Origin: Amoebophrya sp. A120
Taxonomy: Eukaryota; Protista; Dinoflagellata
Direction of reading: 5' to 3'
Assembly (NCBI GenBank): GCA_905178155.1
Contig: CAJINV010000001.1
Span: 11,887,832-11,951,831 of the forward strand
Length of the DNA stretch: 64,000 bases
Below, one piece after another: positions 560-60,900 of the stretch (position 1 is the first letter of the stretch; the number at the start of each line of letters is the position of its first letter). The notes under the pieces are model-generated. The model searched no databases, was not told the origin of the DNA, and was given only the letters and a program-made list of their open reading frames with translations. The position numbers and the translations under genes are program-made.

Positions 560-3500
560 ATGGTAAAGATAGCATTGCGGTGCCGGATGAAACATCAAGC
601 GTGTAGGTGGTCGGTGGTTCTTTGGAGCTGCCTGCTTTTGCGACCAGCGGCCGCGCTACCAGAGGTTGCCGTCTGTCTTCGCGGCGTCCCGGGCTCCCGT
701 CGGGCCTTGAAGCATTGGCACAAGTATGTCTGGCCCTCTCTTGGAGGGGAAGAGAATGTGGATCTGTTTCTCGTATCGCCGATCCAGAAGCAAGTTCTGC
801 AGCGGCACCACTGCCTGGAGTTTCCAGAAGAAAAAGCCATCGAGAAGAGGTTCTACCTGTCGCTCCACGACGGGGAAGACGAGGCGACCACAGGGGGCTT
901 GGAGGTGAAGAAAGATGAACTTGAGTCAGATACTAGTACAAAAAAGCTAGAGCCGCACTGCGAAAACCGTGCTATCCCCGTGAAAGACGCTTTTCTGCGC
1001 AACGACGTCGATATGGAGGCGTTTCACGACGAGCACACCCCCGCCTGGCGGGCCTATGCTTTTCCGCTCATGTTCGAAGCGGATTCGAAGCTGCTCGGGG
1101 GGCTTCCCTTCCCCGACTACGACCAATTGGCGTTTCAGGAGAACTACCAGGTGCTCCGGCAACCGACCCGCTGGCGGGATTTGTCGTGGAAGCTGGAGAA
1201 GCATGAGCGCAGCCACCGAACCTACCTGCGCCGGTACATCAAGGCGGCGCCGCAATTTTTCGACCTGTGGAAGTGCGAAGAAATCATTTCCAACTCGGAA
1301 GTGTATGCGAGGAATCACAAGAAATACAGTCATGTGCTTATTACAATGAAAAATCCCCTCACCCCCGAACCTGGGCGCATTTGTATTGCAAACCTTTGCA
1401 AATGAAACATTCGCCCTCTTGCATCTATCAGCATCACAGATTTCGAGTCGTGAATCGAAAAAAATTGTATTGCGCAAGATCCCAGCAAGAGCGGCGCTTG
1501 TCATGCGAGCAATGCGATATACGCCTAGACTCTGCATCAGAAAGATTCATAGTCCTTTCATGCATGACAAAAAGTTTTCATTTGGAAACTTTGCATCACA
1601 AATTATTGCAACTTGGGGGGTGAGGGCATTTCTCATTGTAATAGTGCTAATCTCGCGGATGGACTTGTTCTTCTTCGCGCCCCACGCGAACATATCAAAT
1701 GTAAAAATGTCTGGGTCCTCTGGAAGAATGCAACTTGTGATGCTGCATTTAGATTCCAGAAAAATCTCTATTGCATGAGTACCAAAGGCAAGGCAATTTT
1801 TGCTACGCGGAGAGGGCATTTGTAATGCGGAATAGACATCAAGAAGCTCTCAAAAAATCTGTTGTGCTAGGGCATGCATCACAGACATCAGGGCTCATGC
1901 AAAACGTGCATGACAAGTGTCAGAATCTTCCAGACCCAGACACTTTTACATTTGATAGAACATCCTACCCGCGACGCGGGGCCTGACGTTCGCGAACTTG
2001 GGCTACGACTACGAAGAGCCCCGGATGGCCGCGATCCGGCCCTACCGGTACGGCTGTTTCATCCCGCGGGGAATGGACTGGGTCACGGGCGTGGCAGATT
2101 TGCTCGCTTTGTGCGACCGGAAAGCGGCGCGCGTGTACATGAAGGGGCGGCTCGATCTCTTGAAGCAACCCACGCAGTTTTTGGAGCTGGCGGACCTGGC
2201 AAGGAAGAGACGCGGCATCTACAACAGTGAGCTGTTTTTGGCAGATGCGTTGGAACTACACCAAGTACCGATTCAGCGGTACGAGGCGGCGTTTTTTCGG
2301 TCCTGCGCGGTGCCGGTGGACTTCGAGAAAGAGCTGTTTGTGAAGGAGTACGACGTGCTTTTGCTGAGTGAGGTGGAGGATTTGATGCTGGAAAAAGAAA
2401 GACTCAACCCAGTTAGTTCTACAAGCGAAGTCGCAGGAACAATCGATGTTGACTCTCCGTCGCCAGAATCTACCTCCAATCTGGAAGTGGAAGAGCAAGA
2501 ACCTTCTGAAGCGAAAGCAACAGCAATGCGGAAGCAGCCTGCACAAGTAGAGAAGAAAAAAGTAGAAAAACCTACCGACCTCCAGACGACCATAGCGAAC
2601 CGCAAAGGCTACAAGAATCGGTGCCGAGTTTGGAGCGAGTTGGGGGTGGCCGGAAAGTTTGAGGCTCCCCGGCCGCCGGAAAGCCGGGTGGAAAGAGCGC
2701 GGGACTTTTGGCACATTTATTTAGTACCGGGGAAGCTGCCGCACGAAGTTCTGGGGAAGATGAAACAGCAGCTGTTTCTGTGGAAGGAGCATCAAATTGT
2801 GCCTCAGTACATCTCCACGGCGAGGTTCGACGTCGACTCGCTGATCAGGCACTTCGCTTTCAACAACACCAAGGTGGCAAGCTATTTCGCGCACTTTTAT
2901 CACGAGTTTCGGAAGTTTGCGGTGTTGGACAAGAAAAGCGGACAACCTTTGAAGGTGCAAGAGCTCGCTGCAACGACAACATCTACCTCATCGGCGTTGC
3001 TGGACGAGAGCAGCAGGAGGACTACAGATCATTCATCTATTCCGGAGGAGTCCTCAAATGAAGATCCTATAAAAATCGCTCTCGCCGGCCGTCGCACGCA
3101 GTGGAAGAAGTCCACTCTTCGACAGAGTATGCACAAACTCACGAGGAAGAAGGCGCCGAAATTTGACCAACATTCCCTGGAGAACATCACCCAGCGGCTG
3201 ATGTACTGTGGCGCGGACGTGGGGGAGCGGTTTGAGCGTCATTTGCAGGTCGCGGCGCCGCACTTGGAACCGCAAGCGCGGTTCGAGCTAACCGGCTACC
3301 CGGGCGCGAGCACAAAGGGGCAAGCGCTTTACTTCGGACCGGCAAGGGAGGGCCAGCAACTGGTTTCGTATTTCTACGCAAACGCGATTGAGGTCAATAT
3401 CAAGGCGGTGGTGTGGGACAACAACATTTTGCTGGAATTCGGGAAGGAGATGCTGCAAAGGTATTACGATGCCTTGCTCGAGGAAAAAGAAGGGCAAAAG

Positions 3501-4426: not shown

Positions 4427-6260
<1,834 letters not shown>

Positions 6261-8484: not shown

Positions 8485-11400
8485 ATGGAGAGTGATCAGC
8501 CTCCGATTCTCGCGCAACTAAAAAAAGACCACAGTCGCACCTCCTCCTCCCACGACCAGCTTGAAGACGACAACAGCACGCGCAATCATGTCCTGCTAGA
8601 GGAGGGGGAAACGACGACATCAAACGTGGAAGCCAGTTTCGTCGCGAGTTCCAGTAGCATATGCATTGCAAAAGTATCGTATTAGTATAAATTGCATCAC
8701 AAATTTTGGCAAGAAGAAAAATGGAATTTGTAATGCTGGTTTACATGAGGAAGGAGATTTGTACATGCATATTTGCAATTACTACGAGTACGATACTTTT
8801 GCACAGGATATAGCACGCCCCAGTCGGCCGACCCGGAGACGACTGCAAGCATGAATGTGGGCGATCTGATATCGACAGGAAAAATCCCCCCTCCCCATAT
8901 CAAAACGGAATTTCTGATGCTGGATTTGTGTACACAAATCAGCTTTGTATTGCAGAAAGGCACTCCGGCCAGATCCCCACACTAGGCACGGGTGTATCGG
9001 TCTACTTGTTCAGCATGGCAAACGGCTCCCCTTTAGGCCCAACAGCATGACAAATCGCTCCCATAATGGAGCGGAAGCTTCTGCCCTTGTCTTCTTGCAA
9101 TACAAATGTGATTTGCGACCTCAAATCAGCAACAGGGTGAGGGACCCCTGACGGTTGGCCACGCTGCATGTTCTGGGACCACGCAAATTCTAGCCTGCGA
9201 GGAGGGGGGAGCGCGCAAAAAAAAGGTTGGCCTACGGATATCAGGTGGAACTAAGGCTCAAATCAGCAACACAAATTTTCGCAAACATACCTTTACGATA
9301 TGGGGAGGGGGGATTTTTGCTTTTGATATCTGACCGCGACGACGACCACGAGCAACGGGCAGGAAACAGCGACCAACGAGGGGGGTACTACGACCAGTGC
9401 TGTTGCTACAACAGCTATGGGTGCGCAGCCACACGAACCCAATGCCGAAGTTCAGCAGCTCAACGTCTCCGGCTCGTCCTCTGCAAGTATGAGCAGTAGT
9501 ACGGGAAATAACAATTTCCCCAACACCGTTTTTGGCAATGCGTTGCAGCAAAAGCCGGAAGGGGAAGCAGCACCGGCAGTACGAAACACAGAACCACCGC
9601 CGGCGCTCGGCGGAACTGCGGATGCACAGTAAACAGAATGATATTTTGTGGCTTCTTGATGTTTTCGCTGGTTTTTTTCGGTCTCCTGTGTCTTTATTGC
9701 ATGAAACAGAATCATAGATCGGCGCTCGCACTGCGTTTCTTGAGCACATTGGGAATATTAAACGTATTACGTTGTTGAATATCAAACAATTCCAGGTCTA
9801 CATTCGCTCCGCCACCACGGACGCAGTCGGAGGGAACTGGTTCAGGTCTCCAGGGCATGCTTACGAACTTCCTGCTCATGGTACATTTTTTTTCTTATGC
9901 AGCCTCAGTTGGCTCTTCTTGTTGAATGATTACGCTGACACTACAGTTCCGACCTAAGAACTACTCTACGAAATTTCAACGCAAAAATATCAAAACTTCC
10001 CAAATTCAGTCCGGCGGAGGCTCCAAAGCTGCAGATCCACCAGCAGCACCGCAGCAAGTGTCGTCCTCGCAACCCGCAGTGGTACAACAGCCTGCTACCC
10101 TGACCTCAAGCGAGCAGTCCCAATCGAAGGAGACGATTTCTGCGGACACCAGTGCCAAGCCCGCCGCCGCGGAGCAGCAGACAAAGTCGAAGAACAGCAC
10201 GAAGCAGCCGACTAGCAGCTCCTCCTCGAGCTCGTCGAGCAGCGGAAACAATAATGCCAAGAACAAAAGCGCCGCGGTTCCCCCCCTGCAAAATGCCTCC
10301 ACGACGCAAAAAAAGCTTGGAACCGACAACACGCCGCCGGTGACGAGTCGGTCGAACGAAACGTGGACCGGGAACAAACTGGAGATAAAAAACCACATAG
10401 ACGAACTGCGGGCCGAAATCCTAGAGGAAAGGGCGCTGAAAAAGTCAAATAGCTTGACGGCCTTGCGCCAGCACAGAAATCGCCAGGAGGAGCTAGATGG
10501 TATTGATAGGGGTGATTTTTTGCATGAAATTCTACTTTGTATAGCATTTTTGATTGTCCGAGTCTTGTTCGTATCTATTCGGTAGTGGTCATGTGGTCCT
10601 GAGTATTAAGCATTCTTTACTCGTCGTCGCAGATACTTGTTTCAAGGAAAAACCACCACCCCAAAAATAAATCAACAATTACAGACCAAGAAAACCCCAT
10701 CCGCGTGGCCCGCTGTGAGTTGAACGCGATTCAGATGCGCCCGGTGGTGAATAGTGAGCTTTCCGTTTATGTTTCTCTGAAGGACATCCGGAACAACCGG
10801 CACTGGGAGGATAAACCGCTGTGCACGCCGGTGATCCCAACAGGGTTGGAGGAGGACAAGCCCCTCGCCGACGAGGAGAAACCGGTGAAGTACCGGTGGA
10901 GCCGTGGCCCGGTCATCGCGCCCTGCGTGTACCACAAGCACAAGACATCCATACTCCGGGACACCAGCAAGACCTTTCAGTTCTACTGCAGCCGGGAGTG
11001 CTTACACAGAGGGTGGCGCTCGCTTCCCAAAGAGATGTGGCAGGAAAACCCGATGAATTCCGCCATGGAGGACCAAGAGAAAACCCAGGAGGAACGGCTG
11101 GCACAGAAATTCCGGGAGCAGCAAAGGCTCGACTGGGACATACAACTCAAATCCGACTGGGAAACCATCTCGGAGGGCAGGACGTATAGTCCCAGCATCG
11201 AGGACATCAACCGGCCGCTGAGGTAATATACTAGCTTATGGGATTTTCTACTTTTAGTAGCGAAGGTATAAAAGGAGTCGCGCATGCTACTGCCAGGCGA
11301 ATCCTCCCGTATGTCCAAAATTAATGTTGTTGTGCAAGAACGTCTTCGCGTGTATGAGCAAAATGAATTTGACTATGTAGTATCGTACTTTCATCTCACG

Positions 11401-14400
11401 ACCTTCATATGATCCCACAGGTTCGAAGTGATTCCGCTCGACAAGGAAGGCGAGGCAGTGGAGAAGTTCGCCAAATCATGTACCACCGGCACCGTCATTC
11501 CTACCCCGAAGGAAGCGAGAACGCGAAGAATGTTGTCCTTTGGGGGGTCCTTCAACGCGGCTTTTTTGAACAAACAGTTCAAAATTATGAACTGGAACGT
11601 GCTCGCCGACCTCTACGCCACCGAGGCCCAGTACCCGTATTGCGAGAAATTTGCGCTGTCCTGGATGTTCCGCAAACACCTGATCATCAAGGAGATCAAA
11701 TCCATCAACGCGGACATCGTCACGCTGCAAGAAGTCCAGGAGGAACACTTTTTCGAGTGGTTCAAGCCGAATTTGGAAGAAGCGGGCTATGAAGGTATTT
11801 ACTATGTATAATTTTGGGATCTTTGTATCTGGTAGTCGCAATAAATTATGTGTTTGTCGCTGGATGAAGAACGCAATAATTATGCGTGGTTCAACTACAT
11901 TCGCTCATTTTTTGAGTTTGACATCTATGAATCAATTTGCACCCCTCCCAGGCGTGTACCAGCAGAAGAAGCAGAAAAACCCGGTGTTCCACCGAGGGCG
12001 CTACGCCGTCGAGGGTTGCGCGACGTTCTTCAAGAAGAGCCGGTTTTGCCTGCGCGAGAAGCGTATGAAGTGTAAAAATGTCTGGGTCTGGAAGAGTGTT
12101 AAACTTGTCATGCAGGTTTTCCATGACCCATGAGGTCTGGAATGCGGGACCTAGCATGACAGAGTCTGTGAGGTCTCTACTATGCCTATCCTGCATGAGA
12201 AACTCCCTCCCAACTTGGTCGAAATTGGACAGCATTTGGCCTTCATGCAACACAGATTTTCGCACTATTCGGATTTAGCATGACAAGTTGCAATCTTCCA
12301 GACCCAGACACTTTTACAATCCATAAAGCGCACGGTGGAGTTCGATGAAGAAGCACGATCGGTGTTGGAGAACGAGTCCATGCAAGCCCGGCTCTCGAAA
12401 GGTATCATTTGGGTTTTATTTCTTCTCTGCGGGTCGTTTGGAAAACGAAAAGTTATAAGCAGGATGTTGTATGATTTTCCAACTTTATAATTCATCAAAG
12501 AAAGCACGCCAGCAGTTCATTGTGCAGTGATGAAAATTGTTCACCACAATAAATAAAAATCCCAGGCAACATCGCTCTAATCCTGATCCTGGAAGACCTG
12601 GTGCAGAAGCTATTGTGAGGAAAAATCCCCCCTCCCCATATCGAAAACCCATTCGTCTGAAAATTTGTGATTCAGATTTGAGGTCACAAATCCTGTCTGT
12701 CTTGCGGGAAGGCAAAGCCAGAGAGTCCGCCGCATTATGCCGGCGGTTTGTGATGCTGTTGGGCTTACAAAGCCGACTTCTGTCATGCTAGTCCCCTACG
12801 TCAAAACCTCTCGACGGAGGCTTAGAATATGCCTGCAGTCCTCTCCAGCACGACAGACCTGATTTGTGTACGCAAATCCAGCATCAGAAACTTCGTTTCG
12901 ATATGGGGAGGGGGGATTTTTCCCGTTGATAGAAGCCTGACATGTCGACCCCCGACTTCAACCTGCACCCCAAAGACGGCTTTCCCCGGGTGGGCCCCGG
13001 CGGCGGGCACACCGTCGGCGTCGTGAATACGCACATCCTCGCCGATCCGGAGTTCACCGACGTGAAACTGTGGCAAGGACAGCTACTAGTGAACTCGCTG
13101 GATCGCTACTACCATGACGGGATGCCGCTCCTGGTTTGCGGCGACTTCAACTCGACCCCGCAGTCGGCTGTGTATTGATCGTTATTTGCAATAGAGATAA
13201 AGATTTTTCTCGTCGCACTTTCTCACCTCGGAGCTTTGATTCTGTTCTTTGCATGTTTTTGACACAGCAGGAGCAAACAAACCATGTTCATCATGTTCAA
13301 CAACTACTTAAAAACAGGTACGAGCTGTGGCACGACGGCCATGTCTCTCCTAACCACGAGGATCTTGACCGGCCGGATATCTGCGGTTTGCTCGCCAACC
13401 CGTTCATTTTCAAGCACGACTTTCGCTTGATGAGCGCGTACGAAGCCTGCAGTGGAGAGGTACAGACATAGGATTTTACGGTTTTATTATGCTTTCATTC
13501 TTACCGGGGAAACAGACATCGTTATTACTTTACTTGATTCAAAAATGCGTAAGACTAAGAGTCAGAAAAAGAAACACCAAGACGTCATGTGGTTCTCATC
13601 GCGTTCATGCACCACAGCTTCACAAAAATCCTGAATGTTGAAAACACAACAGGAAGCGCAATACACGAATTACACGGAGGACTTTACCGGAACGCTGGAT
13701 TACATCTGGTTCACTCCGGACAAAGTTGTCGCCCTCGCCGTGTCAGCGGTCGACGATGACACCACGCTGCAGCAGGAAACCGCGCTTCCCAGCTCCACGA
13801 GGCCGTATTGATAGTTTTTTGTCGTCAAACTCGATATACAAATTTCGATGTTGATCATGATTGGCGTTCGCGTCGCATGATGTTGCGTAATGTTCTTTAC
13901 TACCGTCATAGATTGATTGTTTCATCGTGAACTTTGCACCGCATAATTCACTGGAACTAACTGTGCAATCAAACAACAGGTCCGATCACATTTCCCTGGT
14001 GACCACGTTTATGTTCGCAGAGCCTCGGACGAAAAACGCCATTGCGGACAAGCAAAAGGAAACGATGACGGAGCTGCAAAAGAAAAATAAGGCTAAATTT
14101 TCGAAGGCATACGAAGAAGCGTACGGGTATTTAATATACAATGTTTTTTTTATTTTCTGTTCCGCTAAAGGGCACACTGCCAACATCATCAGTTCTTCTG
14201 GTGTAGGAGCGGCTTTGGTGCTAATATTTGGAATTTTTCTCCTCATGCAAAACGTCGACGGCACTGCTGGTACAGCGGAAACATGGGTTGTAGCAAAACG
14301 AAATTACTTACAAAAAACAGGTTCCAATCCGCGGAAAACTTCTACGGCGGTCCGGAAGCGTCGCATTACTATGGCTACCACAACCAGTACTGGGATGAGA

Positions 14401-17400
14401 GCCAGATGTACCACTACCAGCACCAGGACTACAATGAGATGAACGCGGCTTACCAGCACATGAACTATAACGGCGGAGCGAACGAGTGGTACCCGATGCG
14501 ACCAGCGTCTGGCGGGCCGATCGACAACACGGGCGGCAACATGCTGCACAACATCATGGGCGCTGCTGGCAACGCGAACGCGGGTCCTCAGGACATGATG
14601 GGAGGAGGGGGTCCGGGTGGTAAGCGACAAATGCCACTAGGCGGGCTGAATCCCGGTGGAGCTGACATGGGGCAACAGATGCAGTACGGAGGACCACAAA
14701 CCGGCACGACGTCGGGGGGACTCGGAAACGCGGATTCTAATACCTTCCAACCGCAGCAGACCAGCGCGATGAACTTCACACCGCCACGCGATCACGGTTC
14801 CACGGGCCACACGGCACAGCCGTTTTCGCCGGGCTTGGTCCAGGACTTTGTGAAAACGGACCAGTTGGCGGTGAACGAATCGCTGATGAGCGAGGAGGAC
14901 ACGAACATCCGGAGACCCTTGTCCGCGATGGAGTTGCGGGGCGGGGGTCAACAACCGCGGGACCAGCAGGGCGCTGCGAACTCGGACTTTGGCGGCTGGC
15001 CGCAGCTCAACGGGAATGCCGCGCTCGGAGGTCATCTCATGGAGACGCCGAACAGCAGACAAGGCCCGCCGGGCTATTCCGACGAAGAGCAGCAAGCCTG
15101 GGCGAACAATATGGCTATGGGCAATGGACAGATGATGGACCAATCGATGATGATGCAGAATCCGCAGATGCTGCAAAATCCGCAGATGATGCAAAATCAA
15201 TCGCAGCAAATGATGGGCGGGAATCCCAACATGGCGTTTCAAGCCAACCAAGCAAACGCTTGGGGGCAGCAGCAGGGAGGCGCAAACGACATGCAGATGC
15301 AGATGGGAGGTGGTCCACCGCAGCCAGGGTTGTCGCAGCCACAGCCGCGCGTCGCGCAGCCGCAAGGCGCGAACCCCTTCAACAACACAAGCATGTCTGA
15401 CCAAGAGATGCTGCGGAACACGATTCTGCAGGAGCAGCAGTCCGACTCTGCGCACGGTGTCGAGATGGGCATGTTTGGTCAGCAACAGAACATGGTGAAC
15501 GCGGCGCAGCAGAGCAAGCAACATCCTTCAAACCAACAGACGTTTTCTGCAGACTCGCGCATGAATGAGCACCTCGCCCGGCAGATGAACGACCAACCCG
15601 CGCAGCCGCAGACGTGGGCCGCGACGGTTTCTGCCGCAGTCGCGAGCACGCAGCAGCAACAAGCAGCTTCGCAGCAGGCAAATATGGCCGCTCAACAACA
15701 GCAGTCCGATGGTGCCACATCAACATCGCAGCCGCAGAACAACAACATCCCACCGCCAAAGCTTTCCATGTCATCCGTTCCGCCTAAGGTTCCGCCTCCA
15801 CCGCCGCCACCACCGCCGCCGAGCTTGCCACCGTTCATTCCGAGCGGAAACTTCTCGGCGACGTCCTCAGTTGGCGAAAACGTGAAGCCGGAATTCCGGG
15901 ATATGCTGCCGCCCCCGACGTCACACCTTCCGCAGCATTTGATCTCCTCCGGCGACAGCTCGGCGTCGAACAGCGGCCAGCCCAGCAAGGGCGCCTCGGG
16001 CCAGCCCAGCGCCTCTAGCTCGCAGCCGCCGAACATGAAGGGGGCCGGGAAGATGAAGCCGACGAGTCCACCAGAATCGAGCTTCAACGGCGGCGGGGGT
16101 CTGCAGCGATTGGGGTCCTCTTCCTCGCGGTCGAATTTGCCACTAGACCAGCAATCCGAGATGTCAAATCGGAACAGCAAGGAATCGATGCGAAACTCCA
16201 GCTACCCAACCGCGACTGCATCCACGGACAGCAAGCGCGCGGTTTACGACAGCTTCAACCGCCGACAGCCCTCCCGCGGCTCCGCCTTGCCCCCGGGCTC
16301 CGCGGGGTATTCCGCGCTAGCGGGGAACACCGGCGGGGGTGGAGAGAACGGCAATTCTGCCACTTCTAACACGCAGAATGGTGGCAAGGGTCTGACGCGG
16401 AACTACGGGTCGCGGGAGCACCTGCACCGTCCGACGGAACCCGGCTCTCTGTTTGAGGGGAGCCACAGGAGAGAACCGGTGCCGGCATCGTCCTCTTCCT
16501 CCAGCCATCAGCAGTCGCCGCAAGAAGTGACAGACAGCTGCTGTGCAAAGTCGCCAGAAGAGAATTCCGAGTTTATCCTGAGTAAAAACGTACCCACACC
16601 AGAGTTGTAATGCAAATCTGCATGCTGAAAATGTTTCTCATGCGGAGCCCCATGAGAAGCGTTTTCTAGTCGTGTTGTGCAATTTGTCATGCTCCAATCA
16701 GCATGGTATGCTAGATATGTGATGCTGCTGAGCTAGCTCAAACAGCACTACACTACGAATCCAAATTTGTCATGCAAAACAGCCAAAACTTGTGGACTTG
16801 TCTAGCCGATTCCCCATCTTGACTATGGTGTGGGTACGTTTTTACTCAGGATAGAGTTTCCGTGCGTGGAATCCCCGCCCTTCCCCAGCCCGGACAGCGA
16901 ATGGACCACGTCTCCTTGCGATAATGGTGGGAACGGGACATCAAACCATTGGAGCCACCAGCAGAACACGGGAAACAGCGCAGCTTCTAGCAGCAGCTCT
17001 TTCACGCTGAATGCGTCTAGCGGAAAGAAGGGGCCCGCGGCGGGCGGCGCTTCCTCGACGTCCAAAGGAGGTTCATCTGCGTCCGGGGCGCAGCAGCTAC
17101 AGCTGCACGTCGGGCAGACGGCGCGGGCAAAAGGTAGTTCAACTGAGGGAGTTGCGACGGATTTTGCCGGGGGCGGGCAAAGCCAGCAAATGCAGCTGAA
17201 CATGGTCGGTGGTCAACACCAGCAGTTTGGAGGTTCCTCACAACCGTCCTCGCAGCAGCCATTTAACGACGGACCCCCTCCTGGCATCCTGGTACAGCAG
17301 CCGCACAGCTCGTCCCAAAGTACCTCGTCTCCCTCGCACCACATGGACGCGCAGAGTGCCGTGAATCTGCAGCAGTCCGGTGGTACGCAAACTTACCATC

Positions 17401-19434: not shown

Positions 19435-21267
19435 ATGTCGCAGAGAGCAAGGAAGAAACAATCGTTGGAGCGGTCAACGCCCAGTTTGTCATCCAGTAGC
19501 TCAGAAGAACGGAAGAGCGTCGAAAAGCCAGTTGCAGACGACGAGAGCAGCGGGGATGAACTAGTGATGGCGGTCGGGAAGACGAACAAGAGACCGAGAC
19601 TCCCATCGAAAAGCGAAGACAATATGGTGTTCGCGAAAAATGCAGTTTCGAATGGTAAAAAAACAGCTGCGGCGGGTGCCTCCCCCAATTCCGCCATGAA
19701 AGCGAGTATGAAAGCGGCTCCGTCGTCTGCGAAGAAAAATGCGGCTGCAAATTACGTCCCAGACTCCTCAAATTCAGGACCTGCTAGTCGTGCCGGCAAT
19801 GGCAATAACTCGGGATCTGCGTCCTCCAGCTCTTCTAGCAGCGGAAACCAGAGGTTATTTCAACAGCAACAAACCAATCAGAAGAAGCCAGTCGCGGTAC
19901 CAAAGAATGTTGACTCGCAGCCTCCATTAGAAGCTTCTCCCGAGGAAGACAGCAATGACAGCAGCGCAGTAGGCGGGAACAATTTTCAAAACGGGAACAC
20001 CGACAGCCAAATGAGCAGCTTTGAGAACAAGACTGGCCGGTCGGCTGCTACTTCCTCCCAGCAAGTGATGAAAAAACAGAACTTGTACGGTGCCGCGCAG
20101 AACCTCTACTATACCTCAAAGGAATATTTGGATCGATTGTCAGAGGAGCAAAGACTCTTGAAGAGAAAGCGCGACAAGTTTGTGTACCGCGAGCCCGAGT
20201 TTATTTCTGATGCGGAAGTGGCCGATGCGGAGGCACAGAACGACATGAAATCCGCCTTACTGCTCTCCCCGCGCTCCGCCGCCCTGCGCGGTTTGACAAA
20301 AATCACAAAGCACAACGGGCGAAGCGGGAAACAGGACTTGATTTCAAGAATTCTCTGCCGTTGGTGGTACTGCTCTCCGGTTGTTGTAGAGAGTGACGAA
20401 GTGGAAAAGGAAAAGCAAGCAGCTTACGCGACGCAACAACTGGAGAAAAACAAGTTCGCGAAACTTTCTTTCGAAGATTTTTACGAGAAAGTGCGGAAGT
20501 ATGGATGTGTCAGAATCGAAATCGACAAAGTTGAAATAACTTGTAATGCAGAAAATGGATGAAAGTTGCAACCCAGTTGCCAAGTGGCGCATGACAAATT
20601 TGGGTAGAGCCGAAATCCAGTCTGTCATGCTGTTTGGGTAAGGAAGCCGCCTTTTGTCATGCTACTTAAGCAGCTCTATTTCTACCCCGAAACAGGCGTA
20701 CAATCTGCCCCCCTTGCCTACTCTGCAAGACAGGCACTTTCTGCGTTGCATTTTATGCATGACAAACTATTTCAACTTTGACGATTTCAAAGCTGACAGT
20801 TCCATAGGGAGCCCGCAGATGATTTCGACGCGGAGCAGGCGGCGGCGGCCGAAAGTATCGCCGGAGATGGTAGCAAAAGCAAGAAAAAGAGTGGAAAGAA
20901 AAAAACGAAAGCCGAGCTGAACAAAGAAAGGCAAGAGTTCGAAAAAACGCTCGTTCACTTCGTCTACGAGATGGGCGACTTTCCCGGCGTGTTTCGGAAC
21001 TTCAAGGGCGACCTGTTCGACTTTCGGAAACCGAGGATGTGCTACAATCTACTGGAGAAGAAGACGGAAGCGGAGCTGAAAGTCCTACTGGAAACGGGGT
21101 TGCGGAACCAGCGATCCGCGTTAGAGGAAAAGATGGAGAAGAACAAGTGGAGCTTTCCCTACGACACGGACCTTTGGGAAGATTTGACCAGGCAGCTGGA
21201 CGAAATTGTGGCCAGTATCGCACGGGGAAAGACAAAGAAAAAGACGGAAAATAATGGAAAGCTGTGA
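19435..21267 (+). CDS. Hypothetical protein, about 506 aa; exons 19435-20499, 20812-21267
   Basis: Low-complexity N-terminal half. C-terminal globular-looking segment (RILCRWWYC...EMGDFPGVFRNFKGDLFDFR) is joined in frame after introner removal. Confidence 0.75.
20500..20806. mobile_element. IR introner, family E (307 bp)
   Basis: TATGGATGTGTCAGAATCGAAATCGACAAAGTTGAAATA / TATTTCAACTTTGACGATTTCAAAGCTGACAGTTCCATA; imperfect TSD GGAAG (20495-20499) / GGGAG (20807-20811); removing 312 nt keeps the frame. Confidence 0.9.
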
Positions 21268-21714: not shown

Positions 21715-24700
21715 ATGGCGAGTACTGCTGCTTCCTCCTCCAAGGCTAACAACAAGCGGCCGCAGAAAAAGGGGAAGCAGCCTCAGGATCCAGAGGCGGA
21801 CAAGTTGTTTGCGAAGTTGCAGCAGCAGGAGCTGCGGAGACAGAGCAGACGCGAAGTGGAGGAGGAGGACGACGAGGAGGACGAGGAGGACAGCGAGGAC
21901 GAAGATTACGGCTGCGAAATGTTGAAAAGTCACGTCAAATTTGAAATCTTTAGTTCTTCGCAACTGTTGACATGGGAACGTGAATTATTCCTTTCACTCT
22001 TGTTTGTAATCGTTCAATGTCCACCCTCTTATTGGGAATTTGCTTTCTGCAAGATCAAGTGTTGACTTCGTGACTCGAGCATTTCGCTAGCATAAATCAG
22101 AGTCCTCCGACGAAGAATCCGAGTCAGATGATGACTCAGACGAAGAGGAGGAGAGCGACGTATGAAGGTGCACAACTTCTCCTCCCCCTCATTTGTATGG
22201 CATCAACAGCATTACAAACACCAGTACAGGCGGACACTGTGCATGACAAGTTCATGCGCGGCCAAGTGTAGTACTGTTTGGATTTCCTGAATTTGTCATG
22301 TACGCGATGCCACAAGGGAGCAAGTAGATTTGGGTTTTTGCATGAGAAATTAGGGGGGACTTGTGCACTGTGATACGACGAGGACTCCGACGACGAGGAT
22401 CCGGACGAGACATATATCAAATGCAAATATAGTCTGGGTCTGGAAGATTGCAACTTGTGATGCTGTCTTCGGATTCGAAAAAAGGCTGTATTGCATGACC
22501 AGCAACAGGAGCCCAGTTTGTGTTACGTGCAGAGGGCATTTCTGATGCGGAATAGGCATCAGGAAGTCCTCTAAAAATCTGTGATGCTAGGTCATGCATT
22601 ACAGGCGTCATGGGTCATACAGGATATGCGTGACAAGCCTGGCAATCTTCCAGATCCAGACGTATTTGCATTTGATAACATTCGCGCGATTGCAACGCGC
22701 CGCGACAAGGAAATACAAACAGGAACAGAAGGCCGCCGAGGATAGCAGCGACGAAGACGAGGACGACGAGGATGACGAAAGTTCGGAGGAAAATAAACCG
22801 CCGTCCGCGAAAAGGCGAAAAGTGTCCGCAGTGGTAGAGAAGGAGAGTAAGGCCAAAGAAGCGTCAACTGCGAAGAAAGGAGGAAAAACCACCACGCCGA
22901 GGCTAGATCCGCAGAAGAGTCCGGTTCCGAAAGCGAAGGCGAAACCAACTACCGGGACGAGTAAAGCGGCCACGCCTGTAGTCGCGGCGAAGGATGCGAA
23001 GTCCGTTGGGAAGGACACTGCATCAAAGACGGGGATATTAAAACCGAAATCCGAGCCTTCGAAAGGAAAGAAGGACAGAGTTTTCGAGGAAAATGACGAA
23101 AGCAAAAAGAAAATTTCCAGTCCAAAGCGCTCGCCGTCCGTATCGCCTCAAGTACTAAAAGAGAAGCCAAAGAAGCCAGCGCCGAAACAAGCATCTGCTG
23201 CGCCATCGGTCGTGGCGTCGGCGCCAACATCGACAGCAAAAAAGCGGAAAAGGTCGCCACAGAAAATCACTATCACCGAACAGATGATCGAAGCAGAACG
23301 CCGCTGGTGGCTGGAGCCCGGCGCCTTCGAGCTGACCGAGAAGAAGTGGAACTCGCTGGAACTCATGGGTTTTGTTTTCCAACCGGAGTATGTTCCGCAC
23401 AACGTGCCCTTGCTGTATGAGAAGAAGCCGATCTACCTTCCTCCCCAAGCGGAGGAGATCGCGACCTGGTGGGTGTCGGTCATTGGGTCACATTATGAGA
23501 AGAGCAAGATTTTTCGCAAGAACTTCTTTGCCGATTTCACACAAACCTTAGCTGCGGAAGCGAAGCTGGTCAAGGCAAAGTTTGCGCTGCCGCCCGCGGG
23601 ATCTGCTGCTAATGCCGCTAATTCTTCCAGCAGCTCTACCGGAACATCAAATGGACACGGCAAGCAGGCGCAAAGCAAAGAAACGCTGCACGAAGCCTAC
23701 TGGTTCCCGCTGCCGAAGGAGGTGGAGAAATCTTTGCTGAGCAAAGAGGGGAAGGCGGAATACTGCAGCTCGCTGCTGACCGTGAAGGACCTGACAAAGT
23801 GCGATTTTTCCAAAATTCACAACCACGTGATGCACCAGCGGGAGAAAATGAAGGCGAAAAACTCTAAGAAAAAAGAGGCCACTCCGATGAAAAAGCAGAA
23901 GAAAAAAAAGAAAGCAGACAGTAGCAAGGATGAAGACGAGAACGCGGATCTCGATGCAGCGGCACAGGCTCATCTGTCCGGTCCGCTACCGAAGTACTGC
24001 CTTTTGGACAAGGCCCGTGAGCCCGTCGGGAATTTCCAGTGCGAGCCACCAGGTTTGTTTCGCGGGCGCGGGCAACACCCGAAGCAGGGGATTGTGAAGC
24101 CCAGGTGCATGCCGAAAGATGTGTGTTTGAACTTGGATCTCAACGCCGAGCCGCCCAAGTGCAGCATCCCTGGGCACTGCTGGGGGGACATTTACCACGA
24201 CAACACGGTCTCCCTGCTCGGCTCCTTCTTGAACAAGCAAAAGTACATTCAAGTTGCCACCTCCTCCGCCGTGAAGATGCAGCCGGATGCGTTGAAGTAC
24301 GAGAAAGCGCGCAAACTGCACAAGGTGATTGAAAAAATTCGCAAGGACTACATGAAGAAAATCCAGAAAACGGCAGGAGCGGAAATCACATCCGTGAAGG
24401 ACTTCAACCACCGCTTGTCCACCGTGCGGGAACATTTCGGCTACACCGGCCGGAACTTCTCTGTGGAAGAGCAGAAGCACGGTAGCAATCCAGACGCGGC
24501 GGTTTTTGTCGGGTGTCAGAAGCAGACCGCGTTTTGCGATTTCCAGTATGCGGTGAAGAAGGGGCAGCAGCTCGGTTGCGCGGCTTATCTGATCGACAAA
24601 CTCGCTTTGCGCGTCGGCAACACGAAGGATGAGGACGAGGAGGCGGACACGGTTGGGTGCACCACGCTGCGCGTCGAGCATGTCATTTGCCAAGGGAAGG

Positions 24701-44100: not shown

Positions 44101-45352
44101 CGCCCCGATGTCTCCGACCACCTCTGCCATCGATCGCAGCGTGGAATTCGAAGCTCCGCCGCAAGCGTCGCTCTCCGACGTGGACAAAATGTCCGACCTG
44201 CCGGTACCTGCACAGGAAACCGGATCGGAGAAGACCAGTCCCCGGTCGCGGCACTCGTCTTCTAAAGAGGGGTCGAAGCAGGGCTCCCCCCGGCCGCCCC
44301 AAACGTGGATCGACGCGGTCAACTCGCGGGGACCCTCGCCGCAGGATATCGACGTGGCGAAAGAAATCATTTTGAAGCCGGTACTGGACCGCGCCGGCGT
44401 GACGGAGGACCCAGAAGTTGGGGATGAGGAAGCTGTTGCGGAAGTTGTAGAGCCACGGCCATCCACGCCCAGTAAGGCACTACAGTCAGCCGCTAGTTCC
44501 CGACCGGTGAGCCGCGGGACCAGCGGAACGCCCTCGCGCCCGGTCAGTCGTGCCGATTCCTCCCGTCCGATCAGCCGTGGCGAATCGCAGGGAAAGCTCG
44601 TCATGCACCCGCGACCGGGCGGCGGCTCGCAGCGGTCGACACCCGTGAATTCTCCCCGGCGGTTGTCCAAGGATCGAGCTAAGGCGTCCCGCACGGTGCA
44701 AGATTTGGAGGAACTGGAGCGATTGGAAAAATTGGCACAGGAACAAGACTACTCGATCGAGTTCCCGCACCCGGAGAAGATGGAAGTCTCCATAAGTACC
44801 GAAGAAGGGGCGACGTCCGTGCGTGTACAGAAGATCCGCTCCATGGTGCTCAAGGAAATTCAGGAGAAAACGAAGCCAACGAAGCTACTGGAAAACGTCA
44901 GCCGGGACAACAGTAAGAGTCTTGGGGCGTTTTTCGTTTTCAGTCCTGATTGTTTTTGCTACGCCATAGTCATGTGCACCTGTAATGCTAACGGACTTTT
45001 CTCAATAGTTTTGAACTCAAAACTCACAGTCGGCCTCCCGGACAAGATCCACGACTACCTCTCGTTTCCACTGTACAAGCGTCAGCCGAACCCGGTGGAT
45101 CTGGAGCATTCCGTGGAAATGGACATTTGGTACCTGCTTTTTGCAATGGCGATAATTTTTGTACCGTTGTGCTGCTTTCTCGGATATGAAGCATGCTGTT
45201 ATTTGAACAGACTGCTCAAGATGAATATCACAAACGCAAACACTAGGTTACGGAAGGGCTGGAACCGCAAGGAAAAGTGGGAGATCAAAACCGATCCTGT
45301 GGACAGGTTTCTGGCGGGCGCGGGGCAGGGAAAATTTCATCGGACCCGGTAG
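41166..45352 (+). CDS. Hypothetical protein rich in SRP[G/A/V][T/S] motifs, with one C-terminal TM helix; about 4 GT-AG introns (42625-42743, ~43664-43773, ~43911-44060, ~44913-45029)
   Basis: ORFs 41142, 42773, 43774 and 44066 are linked by AT-rich GT-AG introns (first junction verified in phase). Hydrophobic IWYLLFAMAIIFVPLCCFLGY lies near the end. Confidence 0.65.
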
Positions 45353-53118: not shown

Positions 53119-56100
53119 ATGGCTCCGGCGAGTTCTCCGACGTCTCAGATAGACCCCGCGGAGGCGAGGCAGCGCTTCTTGAAATTTTTCCAAGCCCTGC
53201 AACTCGCCGACGGGCTTCCGCCGAATGAAGCCGCAAAAGCTGCTATTGACGCTTCTAAAACTTTGAGCAAGCCTACCCCGGCCCTGCCATCGGGGCGAAA
53301 TTTTCCCAATGCCGAGGAGCTTGTGAAAAGGTTCGCCAGTGCGGCGAGTGCGTCATCAAGGTACAACGTGAATATTGTGTCCTGCTGAACTAGAAAAACT
53401 GAAACAGCTGCCTCTGCCGGATAGGGTTGTCATTTCCCCGTGCAGCAACTCAGTGAAAAAAAAAAGTAACTGAAATTCTTACACATCAGCGACGACAAGC
53501 CTGCGCTGACCGCAGCGACCTGGGAACAATTCGCGGAATTGTGGGGCGATTTCTTCTGCGCAAACCAAATACTGCTGCCGAAGGGAAAGCCAGCGACCGA
53601 GACCGACCCTAGTGTGGATTTGGATCAGCTGCAGGCTCTGTACCAATTGATTGAGAGCGCGGAAATTCCGAAGGAACCAGACGCGATGGACGTGGATGCG
53701 GAGGGGAAGGAAAAGACCTCCCCAAGAGCCGCTTCCCCCTCGGAGATGGTGGTTCGACACCTCGGCAATCTGTGTAACGCGATCTCAAAAGAGAATGTGG
53801 CCGGGGTGCAGCGGGCGGTGGATGCGAAAAACAAATCCAGCTCCTCCTCCGCGTCTCCCAGTGGCGGACCCAGCGCCAGCAGCAGCAGCAGCGATTTGCT
53901 GCACCCCGGCGGACAGCAGGCTGGGGGATCATCAAGTTCCACTGCAGTCGGCGGGCCGGCAAGTTCACCAGTTGCAACGGGCGCGGATTCAGCGGTAGAA
54001 AATTGCATTAGCAACTCGGACTCCCCTGGTGAGTTGCGCATTTTGTTCCTGATTTTCTTCCACCCTTGCCTCCAAAATCCGGATCGAAACGAAGACTCGG
54101 CTAAGTTGCTGCGCGCCTTTCGAGGGTTGTCGGAGAAGGGAAAGGAAATTCTCGCAACGTGGCTTGCAGACTTGGATATCGCAATGCTCCGAAGCCAGCT
54201 GCAAACAATCCAACAGTATAGAAGCTTTTGTTTTTGATGACGTATTCACGTGCGATCAACGAACGAATAACACACGAGCACTATCATGTGGAAAACCACA
54301 ATTTGCTGAGTTTTGCGATTCAAATCCCTCAGGTATCTAAGCATCACTTTCCTGGACATTTACCACGAGGAGGGCGCGGACGACGAAAACGCGCCGGAGC
54401 ACGTGTGGGACATGTTTGTCGTGAAGAGTTCGCAACTGTGCAAGAACGCGCTCTCCTACATGGAGCTGATCTGGAAGGCGAACCAAATAAGGATAAAACG
54501 GCGGCGGGAGTACCGCAAAGAGGAACTCACCAAGGGCACCGCCGCCATGCTATCCCAGAGAAAAAAGCTGGCAGGGCATATTTGTAATGCAAAAATAAAT
54601 AGACAAAAAAATCTGTATTGCATGCCCTAAACAGCATGCTATGGCCTCGCCTATGACAGATTTTTCTGTGTGTTTATTTTTGCATTACAAATCTGACCTG
54701 CCAGCTTTTTTCTGTGGGATACATGCTTCGCTCCGTGTCCAAGGGCATGGGCGCGACCGGGGGGGAGGTTTTGCCCCCGGAGGAATTCCGCAACGACGCG
54801 ATGAACGACGTCGACAACGTTCTCCGCCACGACTACTACCACGCGGTGTACTTTGAGTTTTACCAAATGCAGGACGAGGACGAAGCGCTTTCCACGAAAC
54901 CGAAGCCAAAACAGGCGAAGTCACTCCACGATATCAGCGAGAAGTCGGCCCTGAACACCTACACTTTCGGGCTCCTCGAGCACAATTTCTGCCTGGACGC
55001 GAACAGCAAGTGCCGCCTGCTGATGATCTCCACCGCGGACCAACAGCGGCACGAAACCCGGCAGGAAATCTTGTCCCAAGTGATGCAGGGGCAGAGACGG
55101 GTGAATCCGTATTTTACCTTGAAAGTCCGGCGCGACAATTTGATCCAGGACACGTTGATGAAGCTGGGCGCCGCAACCCCGTCCTCGTTCCGGAAGCAGC
55201 TGAAAGTGGTGTTCGAAGGGGAGCAGGGGGTCGATGAGGGAGGCGTGCAAAAGGAGTTTTTCCAGCTGTTGCTCGACCAATTGTACGACCCGAATTACGC
55301 CATGTTCAACTACAATCCCGATAACAAGACGTACTGGTTCAACCTCGGGTCTTTCGAGAACAACCTGCAGTACGAGCTCTTTGGGACGCTGCTCGGCATC
55401 GCGATCTACAACCACGTCATTCTGGACATCAGGTTTCCCCTCGCGGTGTATCAGAAACTGCTGTCGGACGACGCAACCGGCCGGGCGAATTTTACGGTGG
55501 ACGATCTACTGGAGGTCTCGCCAGACATGGGCCGCAGTCTACTGCAGTTGCTCGAATTCGAGGGGAATGTGGAAGAGGTATTGAGGTTGTTTTTGTTGAA
55601 AAAATACATTTTTCATGCTGCACGTCGAAGGATAGGTAGCTTTGTCTTTGTGAAGGGGGCAGTGAGAGTGACGTTTGGTACATGACAGAATGATGTTACA
55701 TCACGACCGCACATCAGACCTTCTGCCGCGACTTCGTAGCGAGTTACGAAAGCTTTGGTGCGGAAATCCAAGTGCCACTGAAGGAGGGCGGCGAGTCGAT
55801 TCCGGTCACGAATGAAAACCGTGGCGAGTTTGTAAGCCTGTACGTCGACTTATCAAATGCAAAAATGTCTGGGTCTGGAAGTATGCAAGATTTGTCATGC
55901 ATGTTTCTCATGACCCATGATGCCTGTAATGCATGACCTAATATCGCAGACTTTTAGAGGGCTTCCTGATGCACCTTCCGCATGAGAAATGCCCTGTCCG
56001 TGTAGCACAGATTGCGCCCTTCTTGCTGGTCATGCAATACAAATTTTTTTCAGAGTCCAGAAACAGCATGACAAGTTGCAATCTTCCAGACCCAGACATT

Positions 56101-56795
56101 TTTGCAGTTGATGCGACTGGTTCTTTAACAAGAGCGTCTTTGACAAGTTTCGGTCCTTCAAAAAGGGTTTTCTCAGGTGTTTCCAGCCGGACGACAAGGA
56201 GAAGTCACGTGTTGTGCAGGGACGTACAGTTTTTTTTTGGTTTCGTGCTCTCTGTTTCAGTTTCTTTTCATCCGCTGCGGGGGCCTTGCGCATGATCAGA
56301 AGCCAATAACTGAATGGCCATACAAAACTTTCGATTCTCGCATGGTCACTACAACAACAAAAAAATTATTCAACAGCCTCCGGCCAGAATCTTTTCCTAT
56401 CCCTGTTCCGTGCATCGGAGCTGGAGCTGCTAATTTGCGGCAATGAGGTGCTGGATTTCGCGAGTTTGAAGAGCAACACCATCTACCAGGACGGGTTTGA
56501 GTCCGACAGTGACACGGTCGCCTGGTTTTGGGAAATTGTGTTGGACGACTTCGTGGAGGAGGAGCGCAAGTCCCTTCTCTCCTTCTGCACCGGCTCCAGC
56601 CGCGCGCCGCCGAAGGGCCTCGGCGCGCCGGAAGCGAAGCTGACGATCGGCCGGCAGGGCCCGGACTCCGAGGCGCTGCCCACTGCGCACACCTGTTTCA
56701 ATCATTTGCTCATCCCCGAGTACAGTGATAAGGAGAAGCTCCGGGCCAAGCTAAAGCTTGCCATCGCGAACAATCAGGGATTTGGGTTAATCTGA
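53119..56795 (+). CDS. HECT E3 ubiquitin ligase (UBE3A/HERC4/HECTD2-like); 4 GT-AG introns and 2 introners
   Basis: PYFTLKVRRDNLIQD, KQLKVVFEGEQGVDEGGVQKEFFQL, LLGIAIYN..ILDIRFP, IPVTNENRGEFV.LYVDW, ELELLICG, FCTGS.RAP, catalytic LPTAHTCFN.L.IP.Y, and terminal GFGLI. Confidence 0.94.
54551..54721. mobile_element. IR introner, family J (171 bp, mostly one hairpin)
   Basis: About 65-bp TIR TATCCCA[G/C]AGAAAAAAGCTGGCAGG.CA.ATTTGTAATGCAAAAATAAA...AAAATCTGT; TSD CATGC at 54546-54550 and 54722-54726; excision gives TAAMLRSVSK. Confidence 0.94.
55851..56113. mobile_element. IR introner, family B (263 bp, reverse orientation; last base A>G)
   Basis: TATCAAATGCAAAAATGTCTGGGTCTGGAAG...CTTCCAGACCCAGACATTTTTGCAGTTGATG; TSD CGACT at 55846-55850 and 56114-56118; excision restores the HECT motif LYVDWFFNKSV. 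Confidence 0.94.
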
Positions 56796-57978: not shown

Positions 57979-60900
57979 ATGACGGCGGTGATGCCAGCCA
58001 ACACGCAGTCGCCCCTGCGGGTTTTGCACGTTGCGGGAAGCGGCTGTGATGACTTTTACTTCAAGGTATAAAATTCAGCTGGTGCAAAAAATATCATCAT
58101 CTCTTTTTCATCCATGATTGAAGAACAATGAAAATCCTTACGCTCCCATACACCAGCTTACAGCAAAGAGAAAATCACAGTCATTTGTCACTCTTCCAAA
58201 AATTTTTTCTTCTCAGGTTTCCTTGTTGTACTCCAAGGCAGCTTGGGTGTTCCCGAAGGAACAGGTGACCGCGTACTACGCGATCGGGTGCCCCGACGGG
58301 TCCTGGTTTCTCTTCGAGAATGACGTTTCCAACATCGAGGTGGAGGATTTCGCCTGCTACCTGAAGGAGCACAACCAAACACAGCACGACAAGCGTTTGT
58401 CCAAGACGGACACCCGCGCCAAGTCGCGGAGCAGTAGCGTGATCTCGACCACCGGCTATTATAATGAAAAATGCCCCCACCCCGGAATCTGCAGAAGTTT
58501 CTCATGCAAAGTTTCCAAATGAATGCTTTAGCTTTTTGCCTTGCATGAAAGGACTACGAGCCTTTCTGATGCATAATCTAGGTGCGTTAGGTGTCTTTTG
58601 CATAAGAGATCCGACTGCGGTTGGGCTCCTTCGCAACACAAATCTGAGCGATTCAGCATGGAAAATTTGTGATGCCGATATATGCAAGACGGGAAATGTT
58701 TCTATTGGAAAGGTTTGCAATACAAATGCTGCCAAGTTCTGGAGTGGGGGCATTTTTCATTGCAATACCGGCAGCGAAGCGTGCAGCACCACTTGTACAT
58801 CTAGCCCGAGCGTGGTTTCGTCCGACTTAACCCCGCACCAACAAGAACAAGCGAAGAACGTTTTAATCCAGAAAAAAGCGAACACGAAGGATTTGCTGAA
58901 GACGAAGAAGAACCTGATCCTCGCGGTCGGGTCGCTCGGGGAGTTACTCGCGTTTCTCTCTACCGCCAAGCAGACCCAGAATTTAGATGTCGTCGTCCCG
59001 CACATGTTTGACTTTCCCGGCATGACCAGTTACCGCGCGCTGTTTGAGGATATGCTCGGGATCTCCGTCTGCGGGCCGGACAACGTGCACAACGTGGTCG
59101 CGCAGGACAAGGCGTTGACGCGGTCCGTTTTGCAGGAGGTTCCGGGCGTGAAGATCCCGAAGGGGCAGACGTTACGGATCGTGGAAAACACGAATGTTGA
59201 GATGAAAAACCTCTCCCCGGTGGAGCAAGCCGTGAAACAGCAGCTCCACATGCAGCCCCCGTTCGTCGTGAAGCCGGCGCGGGAGGACAACAGCCGGGGT
59301 GTCGGGCTGGTGAAGAAAAATGACTCGTACGAAGCGATGCTGGCGAAAATCGAGATCGCCTTCTCCTACGGCGACACGGTGGTGGTCGAAGAGTTCATCC
59401 CCGGGCGCGAGATGCGGGTCGGGGTGATCCAGGAGATGGCCAAGAACGACTTGAACGAGGACGAAATCGTGACCAAGCCCATCCCGGGGATGGTCGAGTA
59501 TTTCATGATGAACCCCGACATGCCGATCCGAACGGAGACGGACAAACTCACCTCGACGGACAGCAACAATAACGATAATGAGGAGAAAGAAAAAAAGCCG
59601 TCGACAAACAACTTTGTCCAGACGAAATGCGCGCGGACCTTCACTCCCGAAGTCTCCCCCGAGTTGCGCGCGAATTTGGAAAGGCAAACGGCCCTGGCCT
59701 TCCAGGCCCTGGCCGGCCGCGACTACGGGTTGTTTGACTACCGTGTGCATGAAGAAACCGGGGAGGCGTACATCATTGAGTGCTGCTCGTTCTGGAGCTT
59801 CTCGCCGATCTCCGCGATTTCTCTCCTGTTGGAAAACTCCTACGGGCCGAACAGTTTTCAGCAGGCCGTCATGAATGTGTGGCAGCTGTGCGCGATCAGA
59901 ACGCAGGAGATGCGGAAAAACGACTTGGAGGTCGAGGAAGTCTTCGAGGCCCAGAAGGAGCGGTCGAAAAACAGCTCCTCTGAGATTGACGAGGAAATGG
60001 AGGTCGAGCAGATGCTGTTGAGCCCGGATAATTCTGGTTCGGGTTCGACTGAGTTGAGCTCAAACTGCTTGCGGGCCCGCTTCACGCCGCTAGTTGCCGA
60101 CGATGAGAACGATTGCGTCTTCAAAACGAGCACCAGTGGAAACCTGCACGACCATTCTCCCGTGATCCGCTTCAATATCAACAAGAAGCTGGAGCTGCCG
60201 GAGCTGCCCTGCGACATCACGAGCCGCGAGAACACGCGGACGGGTGACGTGCAGCAGCTCGCCAACACGATTGCGGCCGTGAATTTCGGTGCGAATTTCT
60301 TGAGGAGTGTGTGCACCGAGGAGGTAGTACTGGACCGGCTGCGGTGCTTCGTGCACATCATGCTGCTGCTGTTCCTCTTGCCGGTATCCTTTTTGTACGC
60401 GGTGTACAATTATTGCCTGGTTTCCTTCGACGAAAATTCCGCGCAACACCTTTCCTTCCGCAAAATGAAGAAGCTGATGGCCCGGAGCGTGCGGAACAAG
60501 CAGGACGGGGAGAAAATCACGATTTTGGTGACCGGGGGGAAGATGAGCAAAGCGTTGCACCTCGCCCGGTGCCTGAAGCGGGCGGACCCGAAGAAGATCA
60601 GCATCGTTCTCGTGGAAACGAAGAAGTACTGGGTCTCTGGCGCGCGGTTTAGCAACGTGGTCGACCACTTCGAATCCGTCGCCGATCCGGTCCGGGAAGA
60701 CGCCGAGCAGTACCAACGGGACCTGCTTGCGTTGTGCGTGAAGTACAATGTGCGGTTCTTTGTGCCCGTCAGCAGCCCGGTGTCTTCGGTGCATGATGCG
60801 AGATTCGGGGAGACCTTCCGGCAGTCAACCCACCAATACAGCTGCAACGCCCATTTGTGGAACAATTCCGACAAGAACCACGCGTGCCTGGACCACAATT

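Follow-up and report, generated by a model that had tools for sequence, protein, structure and literature searches.

The introners of the dinoflagellate Amoebophrya sp. A120 are repeated introns, about 29,850 in 1,954 families, for which the text of PMC7789003 gives no identified transposase or splicing route. In a 64,000-nucleotide stretch of this genome (assembly GCA_905178155.1, contig CAJINV010000001.1, positions 11,887,832 to 11,951,831; hereafter the window), a first-pass annotation had noticed that one octamer, GCATNACA, recurs in nearly all introner families and in some canonical introns. It had proposed either a binding site for an intron-definition protein or a subterminal transposase motif, in which case some canonical introns would be decayed introners. 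We find that the octamer forms the centre of a longer motif of 12 bp, and that its fixed spacing and its phasing to element ends, both missed by that annotation, are the main clue to its role. With a probability of about 0.6, the motif pair is a cis-acting DNA site for mobilisation, bound by a putative transposase or a partner of one.

The motif and its geometry in the window

Sixteen elements were delimited, each starting with TAT and ending with ATA (in one case ATG) and each surrounded by a 5-bp target-site duplication (TSD; 14 exact, two with one mismatch; 57% GC). Fifteen are short (151–459 bp), while element L measures 1,163 bp. Window elements have a terminal inverted repeat (TIR) that starts with TAT-N7-AAA and a short direct repeat (the logo was built from 247 elements), with the full A-tract missing in E, F and L. 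Being short, non-coding, bounded by TIRs and TSDs and present in high copy number, the short elements have the traits of a miniature inverted-repeat transposable element (MITE), or non-autonomous TIR DNA transposon. The window also holds 16 gene models, all on the + strand, a TOP1 exon with 100% identity to a protein labelled Amoebophrya sp. A120, and 26 delimited canonical introns. The elements are as follows, with the start and strand of each octamer:

1339..1643: introner family A1, copy a; TSD GTGCT; octamers 1431+, 1499-, 1562+, 1593+; sites facing inward at +44 and, counted from the 3' end, at 44/75
1693..1957: introner family A2, copy a; TSD GAACA; octamers 1736-, 1821-, 1876+, 1908+; pairs facing inward at 44/75 and 43/75
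8660..8810: introner family K, 151 bp, non-canonical; TSD TAGCA; octamers 8694+, 8729-; a third site with an extra base at 8763, missing in most related contigs
8870..9328: introner family B, copy a (Ba); TSD TCTGA; octamer 9045+ plus five variant sites
12064..12325: introner A2b, opposite in orientation to A2a; octamers 12106-, 12154+, 12278+
12611..12931: introner Bb, opposite in orientation to Ba; octamers 12749-, 12781- (32 bp apart); removed from the same RNA contig as Ba
16574..16853: introner family D; TSD GAGTT; octamers 16606-, 16685-, 16718-, 16768-
20500..20806: introner family E; octamers 20542-, 20589+, 20623-, 20655-, 20757+
22161..22375: introner family F; TSD CGACG; octamers 22209+, 22241+ (32 bp apart)
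22415..22677: introner A2c; octamers 22456-, 22580-, 22596+
28317..28525: introner family G; TSD ATTAT; octamers 28380-, 28438+, 28473-; inward pair at 33/64
29462..30624: element L, 1,163 bp, TAT..ATA; TSD AAACA; motif-free, low-copy, apparently spliced, an internal negative control
39203..39455: introner A2d; TSD GCAGG, giving a GT-AG register at 39202-39459; octamers 39245-, 39309-, 39384+, 39415+
54551..54721: introner family J; TSD CATGC; octamers 54583-, 54682+, each at +33 from its own end
55851..56113: introner A2e, reverse orientation; octamers 55893-, 55925-, 56066+
58457..58767: introner A1b, opposite in orientation to A1a; octamer 58668- plus variant sites at +44 from both ends

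The octamer occurs 53 times in the window, compared with 6.1–7.8 times in Markov simulations of order 1–4. Its recurrence across introners, as first described, is borne out: the 15 short elements (4,035 bp) carry 43 copies (dinucleotide-shuffle mean 1.2, maximum 7). Exons hold 3 (shuffle 3.0), intergenic DNA 3 (1.9) and the 26 canonical introns 4 (0.9, p ≤ 0.017), and L holds none, again as annotated. Both strands are used, as had been said (19 + and 24 -), and the number of copies per short element is 1–5, a wider range, in elements of wider size, than the usual 2–5 copies per 170–320 bp first given. A matrix built from 82 sites gives the fuller consensus W-GCA(T/A)N-A(C/G)A-RR.

Two contig runs, X2 and X4, are presumed to be RNA, which is only a guess; a raw RNA run, X9, has no coverage of the stretch. 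When ten canonical introns and five elements, each with one TSD, are taken out of the gene at 7696–18894, 7,993 nt are left, the length of one X2 contig, and five internal positions also match; by this exact length accounting, K, Ba, A2b, Bb and D are removed from RNA. All sites first listed exist, two of them one base further on (20654 is 20655, 22240 is 22241), and four of the six examples from ordinary introns hold, but 8694 and 8729 sit inside introner K, which is high-copy in DNA contigs. At K, the length of the RNA contig is consistent with the loss of 156 nt, the element plus one TSD, and not with that of a GT-AG intron of 160 nt.

With one copy taken per family, 13 of 46 same-strand pairs stand 30–33 bp apart (1.6 expected, p = 0.0002), the best period of pair spacing being 10.3–10.4 bp, and in the larger set from a second assembly the spacing peaks at 31–33 bp. 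The spacers are unrelated in sequence between families. Sites are also phased to the ends: in 10 of 12 families the first inward TGTNATGC lies at +33/34, +41–45 or +55/56 from one or both ends, and the end distance in family A2 has modes of 42 and 33. The elements thus show the pattern of a subterminal array, a short motif near the ends, inverted and in helical phase. An RNA hairpin between paired sites is not general (mean z −0.69; 16% of 122 below −2). Judged from these patterns, the motif likely behaves as a double-stranded DNA site.

Recurrence and decay in a second assembly

A pattern independent of family (an element end together with two octamers) was run over 17 of the 64 parts of a metagenome collection and returned 157 loci. 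Of these, 143 came from JACKZZ01 contigs, which hold the same families as the window at up to 97% identity and may belong to the same strain or another; the other 14 were dropped because they had 0–2 matrix sites at 13 or more. A motif-blind finder (TAT..ATA, exact TSD, TIR), which recovered 12 of the 16 window elements and gave 0 matches in reversed sequence, delimited 245 distinct elements in the 387 kb of loci. Of these, 137 fall outside the search pattern; the octamer is present in 133 of the 137 (360 octamers in 36.5 kb), and 135 have at least two matrix sites. Between families, blastn matches are local only (15–45 bp), and every one of the 6-mers that the 12 families most widely share is part of the motif.

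The longest element in these loci (L031, 505–1608; 1,104 bp) has E-like ends, four octamers and a 238-aa open reading frame (ORF) without a Pfam match. Two unrelated metagenome contigs (L049, 3826–4041; L167, 228–299) contain tandem or palindromic arrays with GCATGACA, whose flanks misfit the matrix and which we read as chance look-alikes. Viral contigs, scanned with the pattern, yielded 15 loci, also read as chance, with no position weight matrix site at 13 or more, and locus L095 was rejected as an orthologue of 1338–1789 because TSDs and exon differ.

Across 208 copies of five families, the non-consensus rate is 6.0% in the core, compared with 32.6% at the N position, 29.9% in the rest of the interior and 10.2% in the terminal 30 bp; family K, in which no copy was selected by the pattern, shows the same contrast (core about 4% versus 18%). 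These rates bear on the possibility that a single ancestral element with a repeated unit gave rise to all families, and that the motif is functionless. Common ancestry would account for the TAT..ATA ends and 5-bp TSD of all families and for the degenerate motif words that are still present in masked elements, but not for a core five times more conserved than its neighbours beside a free N position, nor for spacers that are unrelated yet 31–33 bp long. The comparison of the core with its neighbours and the N position has already largely refuted ancestry as the whole explanation, and we consider it very improbable.

Decay with age was followed in 373 full-length copies, from which 18 with three or more TSD mismatches were dropped; 347 copies, in families of six or more, were analysed. 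Copies with a TSD or TAT mismatch were taken as older, a noisy proxy for age (TSD mismatch rate 4.5%). Private core changes number 129 in 5,660 (2.3%) in perfect copies and 74 in 1,976 (3.7%) in older ones (p = 0.0008), while private interior changes go from 8.3% to 10.4%; in non-selected copies alone, the core gains 1.6 points and the interior 1.1. Since the core loss of older copies is about equal to that of the interior, the pattern is the one predicted by selection during copying and not after insertion. The core looks kept along copying lineages and is not visibly shielded after insertion; site redundancy could hide host selection. When window copies are compared with related contigs, 1 of 39 differing positions is a core base, the decayed copy being Bb (40 best-supported of 121 rows).

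Canonical introns and the competing explanations

The motif is found in canonical introns of the window at the following positions:

4794..4801, - strand: octamer in canonical intron 4716-4904
5213..5220, - strand: octamer in canonical intron 5205-5353
5545..5723, + strand: canonical intron in which two variant sites, 5583- and 5696+, face each other
38863..38870, - strand: octamer in canonical intron 38770-38907, which RNA contigs show as GT..AG and which is single-copy at 80% likeness
44981..44988, - strand: octamer in canonical intron 44913-45029

In the second assembly, 96 introns were predicted with a small gene finder that had learned from the window, where it placed 22 of 26 introns exactly and four with a shift, and called four spurious ones. 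Removal of 1 that contained an element, 6 that were TIR- or element-like and 25 without a GTA donor left 64, which are predictions, for a total of 90 with the window's 26. Together these hold 29 octamers in 14.6 kb (3.0 shuffled), spread over 20 of the 90 introns, and both strands are enriched (21 versus 1.5, 8 versus 1.5). The first-pass annotation had asked for such a count by sequence class, and had let its proposal depend on an excess in canonical introns over intergenic DNA; since the excess is 5.8-fold (intergenic DNA has 16 octamers in 47 kb; p = 8e-9), the proposal outlives the count. Motif-bearing introns start with GTAT more often than the others (13/20 versus 26/70, p = 0.04), a weak difference, and the likeness of canonical to element spacers is likewise weak (p = 0.03, 0.35, 0.06, 0.59, 0.10).

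Several further features of the canonical introns were seen. Direct and inverted repeats occur in 15% of A120 canonical introns according to the text of PMC7789003. In the window, the commonest donor is GTAT, a G followed by the TAT of an introner end (13 of 24 introns), and many acceptors are preceded by A-rich, not pyrimidine, tracts. Intron 5545–5723 has a 16–17-bp inverted repeat (5575–5592, 5692–5708) centred on its two facing variant sites and is the best candidate for a decayed introner. The segment 14162–14190 of canonical intron 14127–14320 is repeated elsewhere: DNA contigs break there, the bin depth is 193 versus about 48, and there is a weak inverted repeat. Intron 18241–18362 is kept in the X2 contig and split in X4 contigs, possibly through alternative or slow splicing. 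Elsewhere in the window, three short tandem intronless genes (48162–51429) have YHATS-like and RQRAV motifs in common and look like paralogues.

Element L serves as the internal control in which the motif is absent. At L, a single X4 contig leaves out exactly 1,168 nt (depth 2.5; short side of 36 letters), a loose X2 end is consistent with its removal, and the gene around it reads 1,208 codons with L and G taken out. Motif-free L appears to be spliced, and an empty allele in the X4 sample may be an alternative source of the joint. L is low-copy (depth 110–443 versus 45 at 80% likeness), and bins with short motif-bearing elements have depths of 22,900–136,000 at 90% likeness; these are summed contig depths from a single comparison, not copy numbers. 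No other repeated motif stood out in L, and an Rfam scan of the window gave no match. A direct repeat of about 47 bp flanks L outside its TSD (29410–29456, 30630–30676), so that the peptide KSPTSPARSPSPVVQK occurs twice in the protein. The centre of L is a G/C run (about 29970–30100), its most repeated part in DNA contigs, and its length resembles that of A120 families 103 and 135 in the table of Gozashti et al. (about 1,180 bp).

Were UGUNAUGC, whose form we take to be PUF-like, an RNA signal such as a splicing enhancer or branch-site helper, it would be kept on both strands because elements insert both ways. Exon insertions do occur in both orientations (A2 35:18, D 16:16, B 8:8, G 11:8, K 11:8), and Ba and Bb are removed from one RNA contig. 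The sense strand has an excess of TGTNATGC in exon-inserted elements (101:64, p = 0.005) and in canonical introns (21:8, p = 0.024), and one site (44981) runs into a branch-like GCTAAC. The former excess nevertheless comes mostly from A2 (48:25; the rest 53:39, p = 0.17), the most asymmetric family, D, is unbiased (10:14), and 23 of 199 exon-inserted elements lack any sense copy, while in canonical introns the opposite word is enriched as well and forms two of the five 32–33-bp pairs. Motif density is alike in elements placed in exons, intergenic DNA and introns (12.3, 11.7 and 12.9 per kb; n = 199, 12 and 8). Sense-strand specificity, a fixed distance from the splice site and presence in most introns would be expected of an RNA signal; instead, the strand bias is weak, sites are scattered and are absent from L and most canonical introns, and about 20% of sites have a T in place of the presumed branch A. 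We consider such a signal improbable. The earlier suggestion of an intron-definition site, taken as a requirement at the RNA level, is not supported, given the octamer-free introns, the unfixed positions and the apparent splicing of L.

A host DNA-binding or chromatin protein might instead read the 32-bp pair in both intron classes and mark them, perhaps for co-transcriptional splicing, with introners exploiting the host factor. The enrichment in canonical introns on both strands argues for this, as do flanks that match the full consensus at canonical sites and same-strand pairs at 32–33 bp in five of nine cases (p = 5e-5; another at 64 bp). None of the 20 motif-bearing canonical introns has an end remnant (ATA..AG end 0/20, A-tract 0/20); intact pairs lacking end traces are not well explained by neutral decay, which leaves room for host use of the sites. 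U1 small nuclear RNA (snRNA) was not detected in A120 according to the text of PMC7789003, and IHF, a host factor, acts on the ends of CRISPR-associated transposons (CASTs) as described in passages of PMC10201428. Yet 70 of the 90 canonical introns are octamer-free, L appears spliced without the motif, cores decay in older copies and sites are phased to transposon ends, so that we hold a host mark to be unlikely, if clearly less so than an RNA signal. Its fullest form, in which a host protein marks introns on DNA where no U1 snRNA has been detected and introners hijack that protein to move and to be spliced without GT-AG, is similarly doubtful.

A mobilisation site, our preferred explanation, is close to the subterminal transposase motif of the first-pass annotation, which fits the elements themselves (end-phased inward sites, 31–33-bp pairs, conservation along lineages, decay after insertion). 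Its corollary that motif-bearing canonical introns are decayed introners is unproven, the 20 having kept no trace of a TIR, TSD or A-tract. There is a path by which an introner could become a canonical intron: of 206 exonic insertions, 16, A2d among them, take a GT-AG register from their own TSD. We infer that the elements need the motif to be copied elsewhere and that a protein contacts both sites of a pair, which lie on the same face of the helix at a distance of three turns. At the terminal pairs, a transposase complex would thereby be held over the TAT ends, where it would cut with a 5-bp stagger. The binder, on the evidence of the TA ends and 5-bp TSD, could be an integrase-like transposase, or a partner, that serves all families, in which case the inverted repeats would be free to diverge beyond TAT-N7-AAA. 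The inverted-repeat hairpin may serve splicing, and the copies in canonical introns may either be left over from old insertions or be in use by that protein too.

Several results weigh against mobilisation. In K and family 9 the first site, at +34/35 or +43, faces outward, pairs of either direction are also seen in the middle of elements, and indels inside pair spacers are not clearly rarer (2.9 versus 3.6 per 1,000 bp). Even among the closest copies, the rate of change stays lower in the core (1.2%) than in the interior (3.3%), and L is repeated though motif-free; the two sense-strand excesses and the intact canonical pairs with no end remnants count here too. A Pfam search of the ORFs of L and one 1.1-kb element found no transposase, and four other elements above 480 bp, outside the Pfam scan, have only short ORFs. 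The text of PMC7789003 reports no transposase found in A120 and argues against transposase-mediated mobilisation.

Known systems and what the motif offers

Earlier work, in the passages cited, describes A120 introners (Farhat et al. 2021, PMC7789003) as well as transposons with subterminal arrays (PMC1636448, PMC10201428). The introner elements of PMC7789003 resemble those of the window in an inverted repeat starting TAT-N7-AAA, in direct repeats and in non-canonical splicing, but the text of that paper has no internal motif, spacing or phasing, and here a strict 5-bp TSD lies outside TAT..ATA. A120 introner family 38, as annotated by Gozashti et al. 2025 (PMC12130899), is a TIR element labelled ‘Ginger’ with a 5-bp TSD, TA/TA termini and long terminal repeat (LTR)-like ORFs; it differs in its length of about 810 bp and its coding remnants, a comparison made by annotation, not sequence. 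IS3EU and GingerRoot elements, in the passages of PMC10045372 and PMC6839031, likewise have TA..TA termini, TIRs and GC-rich target duplications, but a 6-bp TSD of their own and an integrase-like transposase, whereas the window has a 5-bp TSD and no transposase in the ORFs scanned; those passages describe no subterminal motif. By analogy, the TA ends and family 38 point to an integrase-like enzyme, and because of the 6-bp TSD the window elements are not assigned to IS3EU/GingerRoot.

The closest parallels to the sites themselves are the Emigrant MITE with Lemi1 (PMC1636448), which has short repeated sites inside its ends that are cooperatively bound, and the TnsB sites of Tn7-like CAST ends (PMC10201428), which are repeated with a spacing that follows the helical pitch. 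In the passages cited, each concerns one transposase–element pair with demonstrated binding, whereas the motif here is known from sequence and spans at least 12 families with unrelated TIRs; unlike those sites, it also lies mid-element and in canonical introns. No description of the motif, of the 32-bp pairs or of their presence in canonical introns was found in the literature searched, which did not cover figures (PMC7789003 logos S24–S25), files 13–14 of PMC12130899 or bioRxiv supplements, and an exact-word literature search for the motif gave unrelated matches only.

Because one motif pair recurs across families with unrelated ends, the questions of mobilisation and splicing become directly testable, and the pair is a concrete bait for DNA pull-down and a target for mutation in reporter elements. 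It is also a marker for finding old introner-derived introns, and it hints at how many TIR variants could share a single mobilising system.

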